Below, piece by piece: positions 2,300 through 18,093 of a DNA stretch of 32,000 nucleotides. The DNA is from Aeropyrum pernix K1 (GTDB lineage Archaea > Thermoproteota > Thermoprotei_A > Sulfolobales > Acidilobaceae). Made by a program: the position numbers and the translations under genes. Location of the stretch: contig NC_000854.2 of the NCBI RefSeq assembly GCF_000011125.1, forward strand, positions 510,001-542,000, given 5' to 3'. Under the pieces are notes generated by a model that worked only from the letters and a program-made list of their open reading frames with translations, had not been told where the DNA came from and made no database searches. Each line of letters starts with the position of its first letter. Position 1 is the stretch's first letter.

Positions 2300-3247
2300 T
2301 CACCATGCTACAAATCCTGTGTGCTCTCCATGTTCTGGCTGGACTGTTGCTATGCATTCATTCAGGAACTCCTTTATATCGTCAGTAACTATGCTCTCTA
2401 GCTTGCAATTGAGGAACGCGGCTTGACTATTAAAATAGGGTGCGCCCAGTCTGGAGAACAAGGTAACAACAGATCCCCCGTGGTTGAGTTTGTACCCCCT
2501 CATAGCAGGCTCGTGACCCCTTACTATACGCTTAATATTGAGCGATCTTGCCATATGAACTGTCACCCCAGGTCCCCAAAGGCTGCCTACTCCCCGAGGG
2601 TTCGGCGCCCTAATTATGTCAAGCTCTGCTGGGTCGTTCCACAGTATCTCTGCTATAACCTCAGGATCTCCGTCGGAGCCGAGGTAGAGTGCAGGGTCTC
2701 TCGACGCCGTTTCAAGGTTTATAGTCGGTGGGCCTCCGTGGAGCATGAGGAGGGCTCCCTCGACTAGTATGGCGTGGGGCAGGCTGTCGAATAGCTTTCT
2801 TGACAGGCTGTAGAGCCTCCTGCCATCGCTCCCGTAGACTGTCTGGAGGGCTAGGGGGTAGTCGTGCGGCATGGGCTCTAAGCCCTCGGGGGGTTCGTGG
2901 TTGCCCCTGAGCATGACAACTCTCCCTGGGTACTCCTTGGTGAGCCTGCAGAGCCTGTAGATGGTGAGAACCTGGCCCTCAGGAGTGCCACGGTCTATAT
3001 AGTCGCCCAGGAGAAACATGTACCCCCCTCCTTCTAGGGTTTGGAGCGAGCGCTCAACTATAGTGCTGAACGTCGTGTAGTCGCCGTGTATGTCTCCCAC
3101 GATTACTAGGCTGTCACTCCGGTTGAGCCTCAGAAGTATTACCCCACCTCTTTTCTCGAAATACGCAGCCTTGAGCGGCGGCTCCCTTGAGTATAGGGAC
3201 AGGTGTTCCAGACAGTGTGCGAATTCCTCCCTGCTCGGCAGGCTCAA
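2300..3247 (-). CDS. PPP-family serine/threonine protein phosphatase (metallophosphoesterase)
   Basis: 315 aa with the three canonical PPP motifs in order: GDIHGD, GDYIDRG and RGNHE. A downstream HGG and a GH follow. Confidence 0.85.
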   Translation of the reverse strand: MSLPSREEFAHCLEHLSLYSREPPLKAAYFEKRGGVILLRLNRSDSLVIVGDIHGDYTTFSTIVERSLQTLEGGGYMFLLGDYIDRGTPEGQVLTIYRLCRLTKEYPGRVVMLRGNHEPPEGLEPMPHDYPLALQTVYGSDGRRLYSLSRKLFDSLPHAILVEGALLMLHGGPPTINLETASRDPALYLGSDGDPEVIAEILWNDPAELDIIRAPNPRGVGSLWGPGVTVHMARSLNIKRIVRGHEPAMRGYKLNHGGSVVTLFSRLGAPYFNSQAAFLNCKLESIVTDDIKEFLNECIATVQPEHGEHTGFVAW

Positions 3248-3254
3248 AGCCTCG

Positions 3255-3298
3255 CCCCAAGCTAAATTGCTTTTAGCCTATTTAAATATTGCTTGGGG
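3255..3298. promoter_or_regulatory. 8-bp perfect inverted repeat (CCCCAAGC / GCTTGGGG) bracketing a palindromic TATA-like box ATTTAAAT
   Basis: The arms lie at 3255-3262 and 3291-3298, with a 28-nt AT-rich spacer between them. The repeat sits in the divergent promoter region between the phosphatase gene (start 3247) and the HTH gene (start 3376). Confidence 0.35.
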
Positions 3299-3375
3299 AT
3301 ATATCATTAATATGTGGAAACGGTCGGGATGGATTGTGAAGGTCTAGGTGCTGGGCCTTAGCCGGGGGGCAGCTG

Positions 3376-4365
3376 ATGGTGCAGGGTCTGCCAGGGGAGT
3401 TCGAGGACTATCTCTACAGGGTTATAGCTTCGCTATATAGGTATGCTGAGAGGCTTGTGGTTGTAGACTATCCAAGCAGCCCTACCAGGCGGAGTATAGA
3501 CTTAATAGTCAGCCTCCCCGGCTCCAGGGTTGTGCTTATAAAGGCGATCTACGACGCGTCGCTCATATCGAAGAAGGAAGTGGAGGAGCTATCGGCCGTA
3601 GCCAATAGTTTAGGAGTATCGGCCGTCATAATAGCTGAGAGGATGGGTAGGGAGGACCTGCTCACCGGCGTAGTCTACGACAGGTATGGGGTGAATATGG
3701 TTAACCTCGAGACCTTTGAAAACTTTGTCTCTGGAAGGGAGGAGGTGTACGTCACAAGATACAAGGACATATACACTGTTAGCATAAGCAGCGAGAAGCT
3801 TAGGGAGAAGAGGCTGGAGAAAGGACTCAGCCTAGGCCACCTGGCGTATATGCTCAAGACATCCAGAAAGAGCATATACGAGTACGAAAGGGGCGTAATG
3901 TCTCCTTCCGTAGAAAAGGCGGAGAAGCTAGTAGACATACTCGGGGAAGAGATTCTCGAGCCCATAGACATCCTCACCAGCCCTAGGAAGCCGGTTTCTA
4001 AGAGGGACTTCGACAAGCCGGAGGAAGCTCTGGTTGGCGAAAAGCTTCTGGAGCTAGGCTTCAAGGTATCCCACGCAAAAAGAACGGTCGTGGACCTCGT
4101 TGCCGGCAGGAGCGGGGAGGAGGGTGTGGGCAGCAGGATCATGATAGTTGTGAAACGGAGCCGGGAGGGTAGGGAGAGGATGATGAGCAGGATAATGAAG
4201 GGAGTTAAGATGGGCAGCATACTCTCCAGCAGTCTCTACGCTGTGGTGAACAGGGAGGAGAAGAGCCTGATAAAAGACATAGATTATACAAAGACGATCG
4301 TGAAGGACGTTAGAGAATTTATCAACGATGTTAGCAGGGGGAGAGTGGAGGAGAATGAGGAGTAG
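3376..4365 (+). CDS. archaeal putative HTH-type transcriptional regulatory protein (COG1395-like: N-terminal domain + central XRE-type HTH + C-terminal domain)
   Basis: 329 aa. The central XRE HTH is LREKRLEKGLSLGHLAYMLKTSRKSIYEYERGVMSPSVEKAEKLVDILG. The architecture matches the conserved archaeal family of putative HTH-type regulators. Confidence 0.75.
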   Translation: MVQGLPGEFEDYLYRVIASLYRYAERLVVVDYPSSPTRRSIDLIVSLPGSRVVLIKAIYDASLISKKEVEELSAVANSLGVSAVIIAERMGREDLLTGVVYDRYGVNMVNLETFENFVSGREEVYVTRYKDIYTVSISSEKLREKRLEKGLSLGHLAYMLKTSRKSIYEYERGVMSPSVEKAEKLVDILGEEILEPIDILTSPRKPVSKRDFDKPEEALVGEKLLELGFKVSHAKRTVVDLVAGRSGEEGVGSRIMIVVKRSREGRERMMSRIMKGVKMGSILSSSLYAVVNREEKSLIKDIDYTKTIVKDVREFINDVSRGRVEENEE

Positions 4366-4486
4366 GTTATAGCGGCCCCCTCCGCAAAAATCAAAAGTGA
4401 AACACACTATCCTATAGACTGTAAGTAAAAACGCTCTATACTCTCCTCTCCCAACACACGCATCACATAGTTTTAGTCTTCACACC

Positions 4487-5131
4487 ATGTTTAGTAGAGG
4501 GGCTAGCACCATGCAGTCCAGGGAGCTTCGTGAACAGCTTTTAGGGTGCGTTAAATCTAGGAAGTCTCTGCATGTTACTGGCCCACCTGGCTCGGGTAAA
4601 AGCACCTTCGTTTCCAGGCTAGCGGAGGCATTGCGAGTTAAGGGCTGTAGGCTTGGGGGTTTTATGGCGCCTGAGGTAAGGAGGGGTGGTAGGCGTGTTG
4701 CCTTCAAGATAGTGGATATCGCCAGCGGGGAGGAGGGTTATCTTGCTGTTGCCGACGAGAGTCTTGCGGCGCCGGGTGGTAGGCGTGCGAGGCATGGGAG
4801 ATATCTTGTGCTGGTTGACGAGGCTTGGCGTGTCATGTCCCATGCCATCCGTAATGCCTTTGAGCATGCTGACATCATAATTGTCGACGAGATAGGTCCT
4901 ATGGAGCTCGCGGTTCCAGGTTTTAGGGAGGCGCTTACCGAGATCCTAGATTCCGGGAAGCCGTTGGTAACAGTTTTCCATAGGAGGCTGAGGACTCTAG
5001 ACCCGGGGCTGTATAAGCTGTTGGAGAGGGGCTGTATAGTGTGGCTGGACGAGAGGAATAGAGGCCCTCTTATAAGATTGGTGAGTGAAATTGCCAGTGC
5101 CCTCTCCAATGAGGCTTGCGGTAACTCATGA
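4487..5131 (+). CDS. nucleoside-triphosphatase, THEP1 family
   Basis: Walker A is GPPGSGKST, Walker B is [12 protein letters not shown], and the length is about 200 aa. An alternative ATG at 4511 is possible. The 3' end overlaps the trm1 start. Confidence 0.8.
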
Positions 5132-6314
5132 GGGTAGGAGTATAATCTACATACCCAGCCCAGAGTACGCTGTAGCCTCTGGTAGGCTAGAGCCCGCGTG
5201 GCTGGAGGTCTTCTACAACCCCGCCATGGAGTTTAACAGGGATGTAAGCGTAGTCGCCGCATCCGCCCTGAGGAGGACGGGTTTGCTGACGAGGTCTGGC
5301 GTAGCGTTCGACGCCCACGCGGGGGTCGGTGTGAGGGGCGTGAGGTATGCTGTTGAGGCGGGTTACGTGAAGGTGATAATGAACGATATAAACCCTAAGG
5401 CTTCAATGCTGGCAGCGCTCAACGCCAGAGCGAACGGTCTAGAGCCGGGCTCCTACATGATATTCAACAAGGAGTCCAACAGCCTGATGTTCCACCTTTC
5501 CAGGGAGAGGCCCACGCCTGTTTCCCTTATAGATATAGACCCCTACGGCTCGCCCGCGCCCTTCGTAGACGCTGCTCTCGCCCTCTCTGGTAAGGGGACC
5601 GTGGTCGCCATGACCGCTACCGATCTTGCCGTGCTCGAGGGAGGGAAGGCTAGGGCGGCGGTGAGGAGGTACATGCTGAGGAGCGTCTCAAAAACTCCCG
5701 TCTCCAAGGAGACCGGGTTGAGGGTGCTCCTGGGGTATGTGGCTAGGGTTGCTGCAGCGCACGACAAGGCTGTGAAGCCGCTGCTGGCATACTATGCGGA
5801 CCATTATTACAGGGTGTATGTGGCGGTGGAGCGGGGGGCTAGGCGGTCCGACTCCATGCTGGAGGAGAACCTTGGCAGGCTAGTCTACTGCCCCGAGACC
5901 GGCGTGGCGCTAGCCCTCTCTTACGCCGAGGACCCCGCTAGCGCGTGTGGCGGATCCTATGTGGTGGCAGCAGATCCTGCTTGGATAGGAAGCCTGGGAG
6001 ACCAGGCTTTCCTTGAGGCTATGCTTAACATAGCGGTTGAGGCGGTATGGTTGGGCACCCGCCCGAGGGTGGAAAAGCTTCTGAACACTCTGCATGGTGA
6101 GGCCCCCCTCTCCCCGAGGAGCATATATGTGTCGCTGACCAGCGTAGCATCAAAGGCCAGAGTGAACACTCCTAAGAAGAGCAAGGTCGTGGAATTGCTG
6201 AGGAGTATGGGGTATAGGGCTGTGGCGACACACTTTTCGGGTGAGGGCGTCAGGACTGACGCGCCTTGGGGTGAGGTGCTGGAGGCTGTTGTGAAACTAG
6301 GCTCTAGCGGATAG
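5085..6314 (+). CDS. trm1: tRNA (guanine(26)-N2)-dimethyltransferase Trm1
   Basis: Family signatures [14 protein letters not shown] and [14 protein letters not shown] are present. The ORF opens at GTG 5085, but ATG 5109 (MRLAVTHEG...) is the more likely start and gives a 23-nt overlap with the upstream NTPase gene. Confidence 0.85.
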
Positions 6315-9489: not shown

Positions 9490-10416
9490 GTGGAGGTGGC
9501 TGGTATGCATAGCTCGTGCGAGAACGTCATAGTCACGCCTGAGGGCGAGTGGGTCTGCCTTGATACGGGGGAGGTTTTGAGGGAGAGCAGTTTCGCGGAG
9601 TACATAGCAGTGTCCAGGCACTCTTCAACCCCTGAGACGGCGACTCCAGTCTCGTTCAAGACGCATGATATGAACATTGGAGCTAGGATGAGCGATTTCA
9701 GCTCTGCCAGAAACCCCTTGAGGAGGAGCTTGAGGACCTCGAAATACGCGACGAGCAGCATATCAAGGTCGGAGGTTCCGACTATAACTGCTTTGCAGAA
9801 GCTAAAGGAGATGGTGGAGATACTTAAGATTCCTACTAGTGTTCATGAGACGGCCGCCCTAATTCTGAGGAGCTATCTAGACTCTGTTTCCAGGAGGCCG
9901 GGTAGGGTGGAGCAGTATGTGGCAGCCTCTATAGCTAAGGCTGTTGAGATACACGGCATACCTATTAGCAGTGGTGAGATAGCTAAGGCTGCCGGCGTCG
10001 AGGTAGAGAGTGTTCAGAAGGCTATACTACAGATGTCCCAGACTGACGTCGTCAAGAGTCTTGTCAGGAAGTCGATTGCAAAGGCCCGCTTCCGGGGTTA
10101 CTCAACAAAGATGAGGAGGATAGAAGAGTTTATAAACAGGCTAGTTACGAACCTAGGCTTAGACCCTGAGGTTAAGAGGATAGCGCTGGAGTTTGTAAAG
10201 GTCTCTCTCAAGGCGGGTAGCGGAGCGTCTATCAAAACCTTCCACGGTAAAAAGTCGGCGGCGCTGGCGGCGGCTGCAGTATACTTGGCCGCCAGACTGC
10301 TTAACTATGATGTAAGCCAGAAGAAGATCGCGAGTATTCTGGAGCTTAAAGAATCCAATATAAGGAAGCACTATAGATTTTTAATAGATAATGTCGCTAT
10401 AATAGTCTATGTATAA
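9490..10416 (+). CDS. tfb: transcription initiation factor IIB (TFB) family protein, degenerate N-terminal zinc ribbon
   Basis: Two cyclin-fold repeats are present: ...SVHETAALILRSY...QYVAASIAKAVEIHGIPIS... and ...GKKSAALAAAAVYLAARLL...SNIRKHYRFL. A B-linker-like THDMNIGARM is also present. The N-terminal ribbon region has only 2 Cys (SSCENV...WVCLDTGEV) instead of CxxC...CxxC. Confidence 0.85.
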   Translation: MEVAGMHSSCENVIVTPEGEWVCLDTGEVLRESSFAEYIAVSRHSSTPETATPVSFKTHDMNIGARMSDFSSARNPLRRSLRTSKYATSSISRSEVPTITALQKLKEMVEILKIPTSVHETAALILRSYLDSVSRRPGRVEQYVAASIAKAVEIHGIPISSGEIAKAAGVEVESVQKAILQMSQTDVVKSLVRKSIAKARFRGYSTKMRRIEEFINRLVTNLGLDPEVKRIALEFVKVSLKAGSGASIKTFHGKKSAALAAAAVYLAARLLNYDVSQKKIASILELKESNIRKHYRFLIDNVAIIVYV

Positions 10417-11580: not shown

Positions 11581-11973
11581 CGGTAGCAAAAGGGGGAAAG
11601 GGAGCTAGCACTTATGGAGATAGACAAATCGATGCCAAGCCTGCTACTCGGCTATATAGAATATGCTCAAAACTTTCTATATCACTTAGACACCCTATTC
11701 CTAATATCTAGCAATAGCGAATGGCGTTAGTCTAGAAGGTACTTTGAATACCTAGATTAGGAGCTAAACTGCGGTCATTTAACATTCCCGCACATAGTAG
11801 CCTGTACCCACGGTGGACGGAGGTAGACTAGGCTTTATAGTTTTCAAGTAGCCTAGACTATGAGACTATATAAAACATGCGTGTTGAACCGTAGCTTCTC
11901 TGGTTTGAGTGCAAACATTTTCGGCTGTCTAGAACTCTCATGTTTTGCAGAAATAGCTGTGCTCTGTTACTCG

Positions 11974-12982: not shown

Positions 12983-13795
12983 TCACTGGCCTGTGATATC
13001 ATATATTTTGTAGTCGTCGCCGCCAGCTAGTATCTGCTGAGCTTTGGCGGCGAGGAGCGTCACCGTCTCTGGCTCGAGAACCGAGGCCTGTAGGACTTCG
13101 CCTATAAATCCTGTTGTCTCTATAGCTCTGGCTAGCTCCTCTGCCAGGGCTTTGCCAGCCCCTTCATAAGTCTTATCCTTTTCCAGCAGGAACTCTAGGA
13201 AGCCGGGCTCTCCGAGCCTGGGTATAACCTCCTCTCTAACCTCGGGCAATAGCATGTCAGCCTTCGAAACAGCGTTAACCTGGGGCAGACCCAGCCTTAC
13301 AGCCACACTGCTGGCGAGTAGAAGGGCTGAGACTAGGCTTATAGCGTTGTCGATGAATATCGAGTCTATGAGGAATATATTTACACCGTTGTAATCACCC
13401 ATAATGCCTCTGAGGACCAGAGGACCTCCGACTCTATACGCAAAGAGCTCCAGCTGACCAGGCGTATCGACTACCACATAATCTGGGGAGTAATAATCTA
13501 TCTCCTCCCTAATATCCAGAACATGGTTTATCAGCGAGTCAACAGCCGCCACAAGAGCCCCATTAGGCCCGAGACCCTTATCCATGAGCTCCGCGACAGA
13601 GACGTAATCCCGAGCGTCTACGGAAGGATCGTAGGGAAGCTTCTCTGCAGCGGGGTCAAGGTTAAGAGTAGCTACATTAGCGCCGAGAGACGTTATCCTA
13701 TCAGCCAAGGCACCGACTAGACTGCTCTTACCAGCGCCAGCAGTGCCAGTAACTATTATATATCCTATCAAACCTTCCTCTCCATCTAAAAACAT
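12983..13795 (-). CDS. GPN-loop GTPase
   Basis: The P-loop is GTAGAGKSS, the GPN motif is GLGPNGALV, switch II is DTPGQLELF, and an NKxD-like SKAD is present. The product is 270 aa. Confidence 0.85.
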   Translation of the reverse strand: MFLDGEEGLIGYIIVTGTAGAGKSSLVGALADRITSLGANVATLNLDPAAEKLPYDPSVDARDYVSVAELMDKGLGPNGALVAAVDSLINHVLDIREEIDYYSPDYVVVDTPGQLELFAYRVGGPLVLRGIMGDYNGVNIFLIDSIFIDNAISLVSALLLASSVAVRLGLPQVNAVSKADMLLPEVREEVIPRLGEPGFLEFLLEKDKTYEGAGKALAEELARAIETTGFIGEVLQASVLEPETVTLLAAKAQQILAGGDDYKIYDITGQ

Positions 13796-13965
13796 GATCG
13801 TAAAGAGAGGCTATTACCTAAAATAGGGTTCAATACGCTGGCAGCTCTACTTCTCTGTTTTGGAGTTGTAATGGCAGTTGAGGGAGTACAGCGCCCTTTA
13901 AAATAGTTCGGCATGAGCTTTCTACAACGCGTATCTCAATGAAGGAAGCTTTATTAAAGTAGGCC

Positions 13966-14040
13966 GGGAGTGACCCGCCCCGTGCACATTTATCCCCGAG
14001 CCCCGGGGTCTATTCGCACGGGACCGGGGTACACTCATTA
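13966..14040. ncRNA. candidate small structured RNA (family unknown; H/ACA-like geometry on + strand)
   Basis: This is a GC-rich module in a gene-free island. Stem CCCGUGC (13979-13985) pairs with GCACGGG (14016-14022). The internal loop is 8 nt (ACAUUUAU) against 7 nt (UCUAUUC). The apical hairpin is CCCCG-AGCCC-CGGGG (13994-14008). ACA at 14031-14033 lies 15 nt 3' of the internal loop. TATA-like boxes flank the module on both sides (13950-13958 on +, 14061-14070 on -), so the strand is unresolved. No K-turn was recognised. Confidence 0.3.
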
Positions 14041-14196
14041 GAATCTTCTAGCTCAGGCGGGTTTAAATACGTTGATTTCTGACCAGCGGTCATATGCTAT
14101 TTACGTGACTACAGATGCACTAGCTATAGGAGTTAAAGATTTTACCTAAAAATTCCTTCTATACATTAAATCAATATATGGCAGTTACCACGCGAT

Positions 14197-14378
14197 GACC
14201 AAGCGTTCCAGCACCGACTCGAACCCGGGGAGGATGATGTAAACTTCCGCCCCTGGGGAGCGTGGTGGAGATGAAGCGAAGACACGCCTCTCAGGCGTCT
14301 TGCTCATCTGGTAGGCTTTACAGTGGAGGGGCAGAAACGTTTAGTTGTAAGCTTCCTGTACTAGATTCTGTCTTTTTG
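14197..14378. ncRNA. candidate structured RNA transcription unit (family unknown)
   Basis: A near-perfect hairpin of about 41 nt spans 14269-14309 (AGAUGAAGC...GCUCAUCU, loop CUC). It is nested in the outer stem GCCCCU (14249-14254) / AGGGGC (14327-14332), with large internal loops. On the + strand a TATA-like box sits at 14171-14180 and a T5 run at 14373-14377. On the - strand the mirror image holds, with a TATA at 14391-14400 and a T5 at 14148-14152. Confidence 0.3.
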
Positions 14379-14435
14379 ACTCTTGGATGGGTTTATACTA
14401 TCTGTCTGCCCTGGAAAGCTGTTTAATGGCCACAT

Positions 14436-14530
14436 GGCGGTGGGGGCATTGCTCCAAGCCCTGCAGGGCTTGCTTGTAGATGGGAGCCCCGGTGCCGTTG
14501 GGCTCGACCGCCGCTCGTAACCCCACACAT
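14436..14530. ncRNA. candidate structured RNA: three-way junction with SRP-Alu-like sequence signature (family unassigned)
   Basis: GGCGGU (14436-14441) pairs with ACCGCC (14507-14512) and closes two hairpins. Hairpin A is CAAGCCC-UGCA-GGGCUUG (14455-14472). Hairpin B is GAGCCC-10 nt-GGGCUC (14484-14505). They are separated by a UGUAG element (14475-14479) and followed by GUAACCCCAC (14517-14526). The strand and the ends are not determined. Confidence 0.3.
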
Positions 14531-14823
14531 GCTATACATTGCACCCAAGCCCCTGTGGTCGAGAAGGGAACCAATGAAAACTATTTAAAGATATAAAGCG
14601 ATACTGTGGGAGGAAGTGGGATGAAGAGCCAACACCTAGAGTGAAGGGCCCTCTGGATGGGGGTGCCGATGTACGGTTCCCTGCGGCTGGACCTTCTTCT
14701 AATTTGTTTCACGGCTAAGGTGGCTTGGATCTCTTGTTTGGCCGCTGTATGGCTTCTATGCTTCCTCTCTATACAGATTGTCTTGTTGAGAAAACTCGGT
14801 GCTAATACGAATGCTGTTTTAAA

Positions 14824-14833
14824 CTATAAAATA
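14824..14833 (+). promoter_or_regulatory. TATA-like box for the oxidase operon
   Basis: CTATAAAATA. The predicted TSS is near 14855. The leader of about 70 nt carries a GGAGG-type Shine-Dalgarno sequence (GGGGGAGGAT, 14906-14915) before the aoxA start. Confidence 0.4.
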
Positions 14834-14922
14834 CTGTCTTCGAGACTTGAGCCTTACAGTAGGGTATGAACCAAGTATTAAGGATGTAGGAGGAGTTTTG
14901 GAATCGGGGGAGGATCCGGGAG

Positions 14923-15633
14923 TTGTCTATGGACGTTATCCCTACAGAGGCGATTTGGTGGAGACTGTTCCTCCTGTTCACAGCGGTGGGTGTATTAGCT
15001 GCAGGCACTGTCACAGCGTTCTTCATCTACAGCCTATTCAAGTATAGAAGCAGCGGTCAGGCGTTGGGAGAGGATCAGGGTACTGCGGGGAGGATTTACA
15101 GGATCATGGTTGAAAGCCCCGTTTCCGGAAAGTCAAAGTATCTTCTCTTTGTAACTGGGATAATAGTTATGGGACTAATTGTAGCCACGATAGATGAAAC
15201 ACTTTATCTCGAGAAAAGCCCTCCCGTAGAAGACGCTCTTGTAGTTATGGTAATTGGGTTCCAGTTTGGATGGCAATTCGAGTATTCAGTGGGAGGCGAG
15301 ACTGTCACCACTCTAAACTACCTGGTAGTCCCCTCAGACACCCTCATAGAGTTTAGGGTGACGAGTCGAGACGTGTTCCATGCGTTTGGCATACCAGAGT
15401 TTAAAAATAAGATTGACGCCATACCGGGTATTCTGAACAGCATGTGGATAAAAACCCCTGACGAGCCGGGGAAGGTGTATAACGCCTACTGTTACGAGTT
15501 GTGTGGCATAGGCCACAGCCTCATGGTTGGGAAGGTTATAGTAGTCGATAAGGAGGAGTTCTATAATGCTTATAATTCGGGTCCAGACGTGTTTAGCGAG
15601 TATGTGAATAATGTAATATCGAAATATAAGTGA
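14923..15633 (+). CDS. aoxA: haem-copper oxidase subunit II (CuA-containing)
   Basis: Two N-terminal TM helices are present. The CuA ligand pattern is FHAFGIPEF ... CYELCGIGHSLM (H...C-x-E-x-C-x3-H-x2-M). The ORF opens at TTG 14923, and ATG 14929 (MDVIPTEAIWW) is an equally plausible start. Confidence 0.9.
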   Translation: MSMDVIPTEAIWWRLFLLFTAVGVLAAGTVTAFFIYSLFKYRSSGQALGEDQGTAGRIYRIMVESPVSGKSKYLLFVTGIIVMGLIVATIDETLYLEKSPPVEDALVVMVIGFQFGWQFEYSVGGETVTTLNYLVVPSDTLIEFRVTSRDVFHAFGIPEFKNKIDAIPGILNSMWIKTPDEPGKVYNAYCYELCGIGHSLMVGKVIVVDKEEFYNAYNSGPDVFSEYVNNVISKYK

Positions 15634-15636
15634 GGG

Positions 15637-18093
15637 GTGATGTGTATGGTGTCTAGGCTTAGGGGCTTCTTAGCCTGGGTATATAGGTGGATTACCACGA
15701 CTGATCACAAGGATATAGGGCTTCTCTATCTTGTGACCAGCATAGCCTTCCTACTGATAGCAGGCAGTCTAGCACTCTTGTTCAGGGTTCAGCTTGCCAT
15801 ACCGAAGTCTAACTTCCTAACGGGGGATGCCTATTATGAGGCAGTGACGGTCCACGGGTTGATAATGCTTCTCTGGTTCGCATCGCCGTTCGCCTTCGGC
15901 CTTGCAAACTATATAGTGCCGCTGCAAATCGGAGCTAGGGATCTAGCGTTCCCAAGGCTTAATGCCCTAAGCTACTGGCTCTACCTGCTCAGCGGTCTCG
16001 TGCTTCTCGCCAGCTTCTTCACCGAGTCGGGAGCGCCCAATGTTGGATGGACGCTCTACGCCCCTCTAACAGCCAGGATATACACGCCGGGAATAGGGTT
16101 GGATCTCGCCGCCCTTGCTATTTTCCTCTTTTCACTCAGCGTCACTCTGGGTACGATAAACTTCCTAGTGACTATAGCCGCTATGAGGGCGCCAGGCATT
16201 GGATGGTTTAAGATGCCGATGTTCACGTGGTCAATACTTTTCACGGTCATACTGATGCTCTGGGCCTTCCCACCCCTTATGGTGGGCGGGGCTCTGCTCC
16301 TGCTGGACAGGAACCTAGGCACCGAGTTCTTCCTGAACCCTGCCGGCGGCGCCCTGCTGTGGGATCACCTATTCTGGTTCTTCGGCCACCCTGAGGTTTA
16401 CATACTCCTGTTCCCAGCTCTAGGAGCCATGGCCGACGTTATATCCACTTTCAGCGGAAAGCCGATCTATGCCAAGAGGTACATTCTCACTGCATTCCTC
16501 ATAGCCACAATAATCAGCTTCGTCGTGTGGATGCACCACATGTTCATAACAGGAACGAACATCTACACTAGGCTCTTCTACAGCATAACCACTATATTGA
16601 TATCGATACCCTTCGAAATGGCTGTAATGTCGTTCATATTCACGCTATACAAGGGGAGGCTTGTATACACCGTCCCGATGCTCTTCGCTGTTGGCGCTCT
16701 TCTGAACTTCATTATAGGCGGCTCTACGGGCGTGTACCTCGGATCCATAGCCATAGACAGGGGCTTCAGGGGCACCTACTGGGTTGTAGCACACTTCCAC
16801 TATATACTGGTGGGTACTGTGACTCTAGGATTGATCGCCGGCCTCTACTACTGGTGGCCCAAGATAACCGGGAGGACCTACAGCGAGAGACTAGGTAAAA
16901 TACACTTTGCCCTGGCTATGCTCGGCGTTGCCCTAACCTTCCTCCCCCAGTTTGCACTTATGGATATGCCTAGGAGATACTTCACGTACGACATACCAGA
17001 ATGGGTTCCGCTAAACCAGCTTTCAACCCTAGGCGCGTTCATCTTCGGCGGCTCCATGGCCATCGGCCTGGTAAACTTCCTCTACTCGCTAGTCAAAGGC
17101 GGTTCTGCAGCTCCCAACCCGTGGAACTCTTGGACTCTCGAGTGGTTCACGAACTCACCACCGCCTAAGCACAACTTCGACGGTGTTCCCGTCGTTAGGA
17201 AAGACAACACCGTGGTATTCGTCAGTGAAGAAGCCTTATCGAAGTACGGTAAGGACGCAATAGTAGAGGGCAGGGTAGACGTTTCAAACGTGCCCCTCAG
17301 CGGAGGCCAGTCACACTCTAGCCACGGGCTAACCCACCATGGCACAACCGATCCTCTCGTGCTGGCCGCAGGCTTGACGCTAGCACTATTCGGCCTATTC
17401 GTGAGCAAGCCACTCTCATACCTAGGCGCCATAGTGTTCCTCCTATCCTTGGCTAGATGGCTCTGGAAGGATGTAAAGAACGTATTCGCCGAGGAGCTGC
17501 CAGGCTATGTCGAGCACTGGCCTTTCCCCAAGGATAAGATCAGGAGCGCCATGTGGGTGTTTATAGCCAGCGAGGTTGCCACGTTCGGCAGCATATTCAG
17601 TGCATACTTCTTCATCAGGTTCAACCCGGTAGGAAAGTTCCTGACCGAGGCGTGGCCTCCAGGATATCTCGTGCACGATGTCAACGTCGGCCTCATAAAC
17701 ACTATAATACTGTTCACTGGGACGATGCTCTTCACCCTAGCATACCTTGGTGTGAAGAGGGACAACTACCTCATAACCCTCTCAGGCCTGCTAGGCACAC
17801 TCTTCATGGCAATCTACTTCCTGACAGTGAAGTACTTCGAGTGGAAAGAACTCTTGATCGCCGGCCTCGGTCTCGATGCGGGCATGTATATGCAGGCTTA
17901 CTATGTGACCACGGGAGCACACGCGCTACACGTCATACTGGGAGTACTAGCCACAACATATCTGCTCGTCAAGCTCTTCAACGGCAACCTCAGGGGCAGG
18001 CAAGCACTCTCCGAGGTTCTGGCTGTAGGCATCTACTGGGGTATAGTGGAGATAGTCTGGACACTAGTGTTCCCGCTCTACTATCTGGTCTAG
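15637..18093 (+). CDS. aoxB: haem-copper oxidase subunit I fused to subunit III
   Basis: 818 aa. The subunit I signatures are WFFGHPEVYILLFPALG (CuB His plus cross-link Tyr), WMHHMF (CuB His-His) and VVAHFHYIL (haem ligands). A His/Gly/Ser linker follows (SGGQSHSSHGLTHHGTTD). The C-terminal COX3-like domain carries WVFIASEVATFGSIFSAYF and TTGAHALHVILGV. Confidence 0.92.
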   Translation: MMCMVSRLRGFLAWVYRWITTTDHKDIGLLYLVTSIAFLLIAGSLALLFRVQLAIPKSNFLTGDAYYEAVTVHGLIMLLWFASPFAFGLANYIVPLQIGARDLAFPRLNALSYWLYLLSGLVLLASFFTESGAPNVGWTLYAPLTARIYTPGIGLDLAALAIFLFSLSVTLGTINFLVTIAAMRAPGIGWFKMPMFTWSILFTVILMLWAFPPLMVGGALLLLDRNLGTEFFLNPAGGALLWDHLFWFFGHPEVYILLFPALGAMADVISTFSGKPIYAKRYILTAFLIATIISFVVWMHHMFITGTNIYTRLFYSITTILISIPFEMAVMSFIFTLYKGRLVYTVPMLFAVGALLNFIIGGSTGVYLGSIAIDRGFRGTYWVVAHFHYILVGTVTLGLIAGLYYWWPKITGRTYSERLGKIHFALAMLGVALTFLPQFALMDMPRRYFTYDIPEWVPLNQLSTLGAFIFGGSMAIGLVNFLYSLVKGGSAAPNPWNSWTLEWFTNSPPPKHNFDGVPVVRKDNTVVFVSEEALSKYGKDAIVEGRVDVSNVPLSGGQSHSSHGLTHHGTTDPLVLAAGLTLALFGLFVSKPLSYLGAIVFLLSLARWLWKDVKNVFAEELPGYVEHWPFPKDKIRSAMWVFIASEVATFGSIFSAYFFIRFNPVGKFLTEAWPPGYLVHDVNVGLINTIILFTGTMLFTLAYLGVKRDNYLITLSGLLGTLFMAIYFLTVKYFEWKELLIAGLGLDAGMYMQAYYVTTGAHALHVILGVLATTYLLVKLFNGNLRGRQALSEVLAVGIYWGIVEIVWTLVFPLYYLV

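Follow-up and report, generated by a model that had tools for sequence, protein, structure and literature searches.

The largest gene-free gap in a 32,000-nt stretch of Aeropyrum pernix K1 DNA (NC_000854.2, positions 510,001 to 542,000; the whole stretch is called the window, and positions are counted from its first letter) probably holds three small-RNA genes that annotation has missed, each under an archaeal TATA promoter of its own, together with the promoter of a cox operon. We named the RNAs A, B and C. Going by its sequence and position, A is best read as a promoter-proximal leader, or a leader-derived small RNA (sRNA), of the adjacent gene for a GPN-loop GTPase. B and C are filed as candidate box C/D-type guide RNAs with non-canonical boxes, and C is the stronger case of the two. 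The predicted RNAs and their promoters are as follows.

13962..14036, minus strand: RNA A, a 75-nt three-tier GC-rich hairpin (conservation, folding, alignment, covariance model)
14062..14069, minus strand: TATA box of A, TATTTAAA, 25 nt upstream of its first base
14187..14266, plus strand: RNA B, putative box C/D-type kink-turn (k-turn) sRNA (conservation, covarying stem, box layout)
14160..14171, plus strand: TATA-like box of B, TATACATTAAAT, ~20-27 nt upstream of B
14610..14699, plus strand: RNA C, putative box C/D-type sRNA (homologs, box layout, guide match)
14581..14598, plus strand: TATA boxes of C, CTATTTAAAG and ATATAAAG, ~20-25 nt upstream of C

Conserved islands in the gap

We compared the gap with 12 related loci from Aeropyrum, Acidilobaceae metagenome-assembled genomes (MAGs), Stetteria and Caldisphaera. 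The contigs were retrieved via homologs of the GTPase and are listed here with the identity of that protein.

L081: Aeropyrum, flanking genes 96-97% identical in nucleotides; GTPase protein 99%
L082: Logan run; GTPase protein 90% over 82% of the query (222-aa gene call)
L083-86: Aeropyrum sp. MAGs; GTPase protein 73%
L087, L088-90, L091 and L096: metagenome contigs; GTPase protein 59-66%
L092/93 and L099: L099 is from a Stetteria protein cluster; GTPase protein 56-61%
L097/98: Acidilobaceae; GTPase protein 56%
L104/105: Caldisphaera; GTPase protein 52%

BLASTN of the gap against these relatives returned three short islands, A, B and C, that stood well above the coding flanks (~70% identity in L083). 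Island A (13962-14036) was 82-95% identical in eight farther lineages and island B (~14187-14266) was 80-92% identical, at loci where the GTPase proteins were 56-73% identical. Island C (~14612-14693) was 75-89% identical, and a 29-nt core of it reached 90% in L092. Compared to L081, A was identical at 75/75 positions and B at 82/82 (14187-14268); third codon positions of the flanking genes were 91% identical. TATA-like boxes were located 20-30 nt upstream of A, B and C in both the window and the relatives, and compensatory base changes were observed in all three islands alike. In two Acidilobaceae MAGs, the cox genes had other neighbors and upstream regions of only ~190 nt.

The initial annotation of the window had proposed a cluster of independently transcribed small RNA genes built on three GC-rich modules with extensive internal pairing (13966-14040, 14249-14332 and 14436-14530), and had suggested aligning the related regions. 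The alignment upheld the cluster in kind, with the compensatory changes of A, B and C, and found modules 2 and 3 to be unconstrained. B and C were not among the proposed modules. Six TATA-like boxes had also been listed. For four of them a conserved transcription unit follows 20-30 nt downstream: 14061-14070 (minus strand, A), 14160-14180 (B), 14581-14598 (C) and 14824-14833 (cox operon). No conserved product was found downstream of the other two (13950-13958 and 14390-14400).

The gap itself (13796-14928, 1127-1133 nt) lies between the GTPase gene on the minus strand and the gene for cytochrome c oxidase subunit II (coxII) on the plus strand. Because these genes are divergent, the gap must carry at least two promoters. 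Its flanks comprise the following features.

12983..13795, minus strand: GPN-loop GTPase gene (PF03029), 99% identical to an A. pernix PF03029 protein
13819..13825, minus strand: TATA-like box TATTTTA, read from the sequence, 24-30 nt upstream of ATG 13795
14790..14850, plus strand: cox operon promoter block, 98% identical in L081 and 85% in L082
14929..15633, plus strand: coxII gene (open reading frame (ORF) call; Pfam COX2 on the L081 ortholog)
15637-18093, plus strand: fused cox subunit I+III gene (Pfam COX1 and COX3 on the L081 orthologs)

The TATTTTA box is likely the proximal promoter of the GTPase gene, and the TATA element of the cox block is CTATAAAATA at 14824-14833 (plus strand). 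The GTPase ORF starts at ATG 13795 or possibly at TTG 13771. With the former, the product is the 270-aa protein of the NCBI annotation; in L083 the ortholog begins (MIGYI...) at the equivalent of TTG 13771, a choice that shifts the gap length by 24 nt. For coxII the start is TTG 14923 or ATG 14929, and a Shine-Dalgarno-like GGAGG precedes ATG 14929.

We examined the 13 ORFs of at least 30 aa in the gap. All were frameshifted or stopped in L081 except three, which overlie or adjoin the near-identical blocks A and B and are lost in farther relatives. Because the ORFs are broken in the nearest relative, the gap is real and non-coding, and the earlier description of a 1127-nt stretch without a dependable gene held. 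A 70-aa hydrophobic ORF just before coxII (14657-14869, plus strand) resembles a small membrane protein. We rejected it as a gene: the L081 version is frameshifted and has two stops, and L082 does not have its ATG. The GC content, described earlier as uneven, swings from 0.34 to 0.62 in 100-nt windows. The next largest ORF-free stretch had been put at ~390 nt; we found it at 11581-11973 (~393 nt), between the gene for ribosomal protein S8e and a 297-aa gene. That stretch is 87% identical in the closest relative, and we observed no island in it that is kept in farther relatives.

A search of all Rfam models at gathering score found no match in the whole 32 kb. By eye, the initial annotation had fitted no module to tRNA, C/D-box, RNase P or a complete SRP RNA. 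At E values up to 10, positions 13600-15100 and four relatives gave only noise, including for SRP RNA and RNase P RNA. ARAGORN predicted 0 tRNAs in the gap, and the Rfam tRNA model returned nothing there at E up to 10. The Stetteria-type loci carry an intron-containing tRNA gene with the CCA end ...CCCGGGTTCAAATCCCGGCGGCCCCACCA (L099 ~2190-2310; L092 ~3230-3331; L093 1-29), in the order tRNA, 86-90-aa ORF, B, A, GTPase gene. ARAGORN misses this gene, and its negative result on archaeal DNA is therefore weak. A literature search with sequence strings of A, B and C found nothing relevant.

We also considered tRNA halves. A. pernix K1 has a split tRNA-Asp at 372,080 (Chan, Cozen and Lowe 2011, PMC3218864), whose halves are, like A and B, small GC-rich RNA genes with strong promoters of their own in one intergenic region of this organism. 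The layout in the initial annotation and an inverted repeat that makes A and B complementary (14001-14016 / 14215-14230) had suggested halves that pair in trans. However, the tRNA-Asp halves are encoded at another locus and their published primers are absent here. The inverted repeat is not kept in L083. A and B were rejected as a tRNA or as split-tRNA halves, as no T-loop, D-arm or anticodon arm could be drawn in them.

RNA A, a hairpin upstream of the GTPase gene

The predicted fold of A consists of a basal stem of 5+4 bp, a middle stem of 10 bp, an internal loop and an apical stem of 5 bp with a 5-nt loop, followed by the 3' tail CCGGCC. Its folding energy was −41 kcal/mol (z = −2.9; 0/200 shuffles as good). 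In an alignment of 10 sequences, 96.5% of the cells were paired and four pairs were altered on both sides. The loops were variable, the stems were near-invariant and G.U pairs occurred only on the minus strand. A covariance model scored 75-102 bits in the relatives and 26.6 bits in the diverged Caldisphaera copy, which takes the same fold (z = −3.2) with more compensatory swaps (CCUGCG/CGCAGG compared to CCCGUG/CACGGG). A scan of A alone against Rfam matched no family.

A was co-oriented with the GTPase gene and upstream of it in every lineage fetched. On the same strand, a YTTTAAA-like box lies at the same distance (~25 nt) upstream of A in 9/9 relatives examined. The distance from A to the GTPase start was 166 nt in the window and 124, 142, 130, 75, 69, 49 and 41 nt in relatives, and it was 10 nt in Caldisphaera, where UUUUUAU, the ribosome-binding site GGUGG and the ATG come after the hairpin. 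Within the spacer from A to the GTPase gene, the window has a 42-nt segment (13895-13936) that L081 lacks, which indicates that the spacer downstream of A is free to vary in length.

We propose that A would be transcribed in the direction of the GPN-loop GTPase gene and form a stable hairpin RNA. The leader interpretation follows from relatives in which A lies 10-75 nt from the start, which leaves little or no room for a second promoter. In the window, A is probably released as a separate RNA of ~75 nt, because it lies 166 nt from a gene that has a TATA-like box of its own.

Structured 5' leaders are exemplified by the k-turn in the l7ae 5' untranslated region (PMC5539422). A resembles such leaders in that it is conserved between a promoter and a start codon, before the same gene and in the same orientation, and it abuts the ribosome-binding site in several lineages. 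It differs from the l7ae leader in having no k-turn and no known binding protein, ligand or regulatory effect. A second difference is that, in Aeropyrum, A is 124-166 nt from the gene and a second TATA-like box lies between them.

Archaeal H/ACA sRNAs, such as Ape7 of A. pernix (PMC2651775), were the other class with a comparable shape. A shares their outline: it is a ~75-nt hairpin in which an internal loop (6-9 / 7 nt) separates a lower stem from an upper stem of 5 bp. H/ACA guides follow the rule of an ACA/ANA box 14-16 nt 3' of the pocket-closing pair and a lower stem of 7-9 bp (PMC4652768). In A, by contrast, positions 14-16 on the transcribed strand are GGG, with no ACA/ANA, and the lower stem is ~19 bp. 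A has no k-turn or k-loop, and its apical loop is 5 nt long and variable (GGGCU, AGUCA and others). A GA/GA arrangement at the internal loop was seen in 5/10 sequences, the window not among them, and it conflicts with the 10-bp stem register. The "pocket" bases vary while the stems are invariant, the reverse of what is expected of a guide. A was rejected as an H/ACA guide on the k-turn/k-loop, the ACA box and the pocket conservation.

RNAs B and C

B is predicted to begin and end in a terminal stem (14187-14193 / 14260-14266) that is followed by the C-like box AUGACCA (14195-14201) and preceded by the D-like box GGGA (14256-14259). Between these lie a first guide, AGCGUUCCAGCA (14202-14213, an invariant 12 nt), the D' box CCGA (14214-14217; CCGA/CUGA in homologs), the C' box AUGAUGU (14234-14240; RUGAKGU in homologs) and a second invariant guide, CUUCCGCCCCUG (14244-14255). 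The spacing from C to D' is exactly 12 nt, that from C' to D is 15-17 nt, and the D'-C' spacer is 12-22 nt. We identified B in L082, L083-86, L092, L096 and L099 in addition to L081, and an A/T-rich box was present 20-38 nt upstream in every homolog. The terminal stem ACCACGC/GCGUGGU becomes AUGGUGC/GCACCAU, GCGGGGC/GCCCCGC or GGGAGG/CCUCCC in relatives. Thus 5/7 pairs are changed on both sides, and the covariation score was reached by 0/500 shuffles. The putative k-turn places GAU-GACC opposite GGGA, giving a 3-nt bulge, G.A, A.G and two C-G pairs, and the bulge with G.A/A.G could be drawn in 5/6 homologs. Scanned alone against Rfam, B was similar only to archaeal C/D families, with the boxes aligned and the scores below threshold (sR55, 10.9 bits against a gathering score of 35; sR47, 8.1 bits against 40).

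C has the same plan. A terminal stem (14610-14619 / 14692-14699) encloses the C box AUGAAGA (14621-14627), the first guide GCCAACACCUAGA (14628-14640), D' GUGA (14641-14644), C' GAUGUAC (14668-14674), the second guide GGUUCCCUGCGGC (14675-14687) and the D-like box UGGA (14688-14691). Homologs were found in L081, L082, L083-86, L096 and L092, and boxes comparable to the TATA of C are present in L081, L083 and L092. The homologs read AUGAAGA, guide GCCAACACCUAG(A), D' xxGA (GUGA/GCGA/AGGA/UUGA), a spacer, C' (x)GAUGU, guide UUCCCUGCGGC and D UGGA/UAGA; the C-to-D' and C'-to-D distances are 13 nt each. Boxes and guides were invariant and spacers variable. The terminal stems have four different sequences, including GGGG/CCCC, GGCGGCGG/CCGCCGCC and GGCCC/GGGCC, and the bulge with G.A/A.G could be drawn in all C homologs.

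In the proposed mechanism, the terminal stem would join the C-like and D-like boxes into a k-turn with tandem G.A/A.G pairs, the binding site of L7Ae. The internal D' and C' boxes would split each RNA into two guides of 12-13 nt, which, with L7Ae, Nop5 and fibrillarin as presumed partners, would direct 2'-O-methylation. Archaeal box C/D sRNAs were first described by Omer et al. 2000 (cited in PMC5539422). B and C share with this class, represented by sR47 (RF01131) and sR55 (RF01307), a terminal stem closing a potential k-turn with tandem G.A pairs, internal D' (CYGA, xxGA) and C' (RUGAKGU) boxes, and 12-13 nt from C to D'. They also have in common with it two conserved guides around a variable D'-C' spacer, a length of 80-90 nt, TATA promoters of their own, a tandem arrangement (B and C are neighbors ~50-70 nt apart in L082, L083 and L096) and, for C, guides that match nearby sites in the 16S rRNA of Halococcus. 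The initial annotation had fitted no module to the C/D class by eye, yet B and C have the C/D architecture, with non-canonical boxes. In both RNAs the k-turn layers differ from the known form: U.U and G-C are replaced by C-G/C-G in B and by A.G in C. B departs further in its C'-to-D distance of 15-17 nt and in its D'-C' spacer, which holds a conserved CCCGGGG.

L083 contains an intergenic canonical C/D candidate (9857-9915, plus strand; ATGATGA-12 nt-CCGA-13 nt-ATGAGGA-12 nt-CTGA). Like B it has the D' box CCGA, and its C' box is AUGAGGA. This candidate shows CCGA and UGAGG box variants in apparent use in this lineage.

We searched for guide targets in the rRNAs of E. coli and in a 6.2-kb plasmid-borne rRNA operon of Halococcus. 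For box C/D guides, the expected pairing with rRNA or tRNA covers 9-10 bp or more and puts the target at the 5th nucleotide from D/D'. The E. coli rRNA gave nothing above shuffles. In Halococcus, the best joint site of the two C guides was in 16S rRNA and combined CUAGGUGU (8 bp) with GCCGUAGGGAA (11 bp, one of them G.U); a single hairpin lies between these two sites, which are 33 nt apart. This joint site scored 18.5 compared to 14.4 +/- 1.05 for shuffles (reached by 1/200). Judged by this match, C most likely guides two sites flanking one 16S rRNA hairpin. If so, the Aeropyrum 16S rRNA would be expected to contain CUAGGUGUUGG and GCCGCAGGGAA.

The 3' part of C, CCUGCGGCUGGA (14675-14691), shares a 12-mer, in the sense direction, with the 3' strand of the last 16S helix and the bases that follow it; two metagenome 16S 3' ends show this (L101 1445-1487; L103 about 45-80). 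Because the identity is to the 3' strand, the 5' strand of that helix is a second possible target of the D guide of C. A metagenome scan with a guessed 16S helix-45 variant returned four non-archaeal contigs only.

History of the gap, competing explanations and significance

Two further parts of the gap bear on how it arose.

14267..14609, no strand assigned: lineage-specific filler of ~340 nt between B and C, in the window and L081 only
14441..14512, plus strand: tnpB 3'-end relic (62/72 identical (86%), E = 1e-11 in 7.3 Gb)

The filler has no counterpart in L082, L083 or L096. Compared to L081 it was 83-84% identical over 14269-14530 and 58% identical over 14531-14611, against 91% at third codon positions. 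Its folding z-scores were ~0 and it has no second copy in the window. On these figures the filler is unconstrained and evolving at or above the neutral rate.

Within the filler, 14441-14512 matched tnpB of the Pyrococcus abyssi plasmid pGE2 in the part of the gene 100-170 nt ahead of its stop codon, with two frame-breaking gaps; at the protein level, tblastn recognized only 10 aa. By this homology the segment is an IS200/IS605 relic. The omega-RNA scaffold of IS200/IS605 elements is encoded at the 3' end of tnpB. Like an omega-RNA region, the relic falls in that part of the ORF, and its three small stems are kept in pGE2 through G.U/A-U and C-G/U.G changes. The frame-breaking gaps suggest that the relic and pGE2 are conserved at the level of nucleic acid rather than protein. 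Unlike omega-RNA elements, the relic has no tnpB ORF, transposon ends or second copy in the window, and no Rfam match of the omega-RNA type; it is decaying, at 83% identity to L081 with changes that break its stems. Downstream of the shared core we found no similarity to pGE2. In pGE2 (L095, 2570-2640), a perfect hairpin, GCCATCTGGATT-GAAAA-AATCCAGATGGC, lies just downstream of the shared segment and has no counterpart in the window. Neither the tnpB motif nor the pGE2 TnpB protein matched viral contigs, and the pGE2 segment gave no further match among plasmids and phages. A phage or plasmid origin of the whole gap was rejected, as phages gave no match and plasmids gave none beyond the tnpB fragment.

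In L083-86 and L096, A and B are separated by a gene for a xanthine/uracil permease (458-474 aa; the A-B interval of L083 is 4191-5795), and in L087-91 this gene lies beside A. It is missing from the window, L081 and L082, where the A-B spacer is 150 nt and holds the divergent promoters of the two RNAs; in the window this slot is 14037-14186. A tblastn search of the gap with the permease found nothing (best E = 1.2), which indicates a clean loss. This loss left two divergent sRNA promoters back to back. The 1.1-kb length of the gap is thus explained by the permease gene lost between A and B and the ~340 nt inserted between B and C.

Several observations weigh against the three-RNA interpretation. 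The transcripts of A, B and C are all predicted from sequence. Because the stems of A are almost invariant, its covariation comes from few sequences; most lineages show no T-run terminator after A, and A cannot be assigned a ligand or a protein partner. The C boxes of B (AUGACCA) and C (AUGAAGA) match 4/7 and 6/7 positions of the canonical RUGAUGA, and the D boxes GGGA (B) and UGGA/UAGA (C) depart from CUGA. B can be read in an alternative register (C box GCGAUGA, 6/7; D box CUGG), and the boxes of both RNAs keep the GA dinucleotides needed for sheared pairs while the canonical hexamers are absent. In the Stetteria B (L099), Watson-Crick GGCC/GGCC stands in place of the tandem G.A, so the k-turn is not universal in B. 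The guides of B had no site above chance in E. coli or Halococcus rRNA (Halococcus shuffle fraction, 0.15), and the 16S match of C lies in a distant archaeon (Halococcus) rather than in Aeropyrum rRNA. No Rfam model reached threshold for B or C; C/D families are species-specific, which makes this covariance-model test weak. The link to tnpB comes from a single 72-nt match.

Two alternatives keep the RNAs and change their roles. A could be a free-standing trans-acting sRNA for which the adjacent GTPase gene is mere conserved synteny with no cis role, and we regard this as possible though doubtful. It would account for the conserved TATA box of A, for the 166 nt and the separate TATA-like box (13819-13825) that set the gene apart from A in the window, and for invariant stems which, with the 3' tail CUCCCGGCC, could serve as a recognition surface for a trans partner. 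It does not sit well with an A that is always co-oriented and directly upstream of the GTPase gene while its other neighbors (the permease, B and genes for CBS-domain proteins) change, with the 49, 41 and 10 nt left before the start in L091, L092 and Caldisphaera, which give little or no room for a promoter, or with the missing T-runs. Similarly, instead of methylation guides, B and perhaps C could be k-turn RNAs with a structural or regulatory role, such as decoys that bind proteins and only resemble C/D sRNAs. The non-canonical boxes of both RNAs would suit this role, as would the failure of B to find an rRNA target in E. coli or Halococcus and the replaced G.A pairs in Stetteria. The "spacer" of B (80 nt in all) has the conserved palindromic CCCGGGG, which RNAalifold pairs with the D-side guide. 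Yet the order C-guide-D'-spacer-C'-guide-D with 12-13 nt from C to D' is the signature of archaeal C/D RNAs, as are the invariant guides, the variable spacers and the covarying terminal stems; the dual 16S match of C is significant, and the similarities in Rfam are to C/D families only. We therefore consider the decoy role unlikely.

Three other alternatives concern the gap as a whole. The initial annotation, taken literally, would make each of its three modules a structured sRNA gene with an adjacent TATA box. Module 1 coincides with conserved A and folds significantly, as claimed, modules 2 and 3 do have TATA-like boxes before them on the plus strand, and the box at 14390-14400 is kept in L081. 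However, module 1 would be transcribed from the opposite strand, and the pairing claimed for the other two did not hold up (z = −0.3 for the module 2 hairpin at 14270-14335; z = −0.1 for module 3 at 14436-14530). L082, L083 and L096 lack modules 2 and 3, which are 83-84% identical in L081 compared to 91% at synonymous positions and carry substitutions in L081 that disrupt their stems without compensation. Most of module 2 is a hairpin that is not conserved, and only ~18 nt of the module overlap B. Module 3 is the decaying homolog of the tnpB 3' end, and a decayed pseudogene was an outcome that the initial annotation itself had named as counting against its proposal. The literal version is thus improbable. 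A whole gap made of a decayed coding gene such as the permease, with the conserved blocks as DNA promoter or operator elements, is more improbable still. A 474-aa permease does fill the homologous interval in sister lineages, and the region has several true promoters, but the tblastn search was negative, the permease slot given by synteny is only the 150-nt A-B spacer, and compensatory stem changes, variable loops and strand-specific G.U pairs are not expected of protein-binding DNA. We give next to no credence to a replication origin. The gap is a long non-coding stretch with AT-rich segments, and A. pernix is known to have origins away from orc1-adjacent positions. However, there is no adjacent orc1/cdc6 or whiP gene and no turn in GC skew at the gap, and the conserved parts are explained as RNAs. 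A repeat search of the gap found only short two-copy chance matches rather than ORB-like elements, and from this we conclude that there is no origin-like or CRISPR-like array.

Overall, our data amount to a useful annotation and not to a new kind of system, and the current understanding stands. B and C add C/D-type sRNAs with unusual boxes, and A is a hairpin RNA outside the known classes tested. Annotation based on Rfam misses three conserved, predicted RNA genes in a model hyperthermophile and its relatives, and finders that require canonical C/D boxes would plausibly overlook B and C. The locus also records a clean gene loss and an IS200/IS605 remnant, and the 86% identity of this remnant with a gene on a Pyrococcus plasmid hints that hyperthermophilic Crenarchaeota and Euryarchaeota have exchanged mobile elements. 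C predicts two 2'-O-methylations flanking one 16S hairpin.

The GPN-loop GTPase family is universally conserved in archaea and eukaryotes. It includes eukaryotic proteins that assemble RNA polymerase II; what the family does in archaea is poorly understood. We know of no RNA regulator of a GPN-loop GTPase, and A is a candidate for the first RNA element tied to such a gene. We put forward only tentatively, as a joint proposition, that A represents a new leader or sRNA family of the GTPase gene and that functional C/D ribonucleoproteins tolerate the boxes of B and C. If it is true, k-turns with the D boxes GGGA/UGGA and the C boxes AUGACC/AUGAAG would function and be missed by standard C/D finders, and the A family would have kept its place directly before the GTPase gene all the way from Aeropyrum to Stetteria and Caldisphaera.

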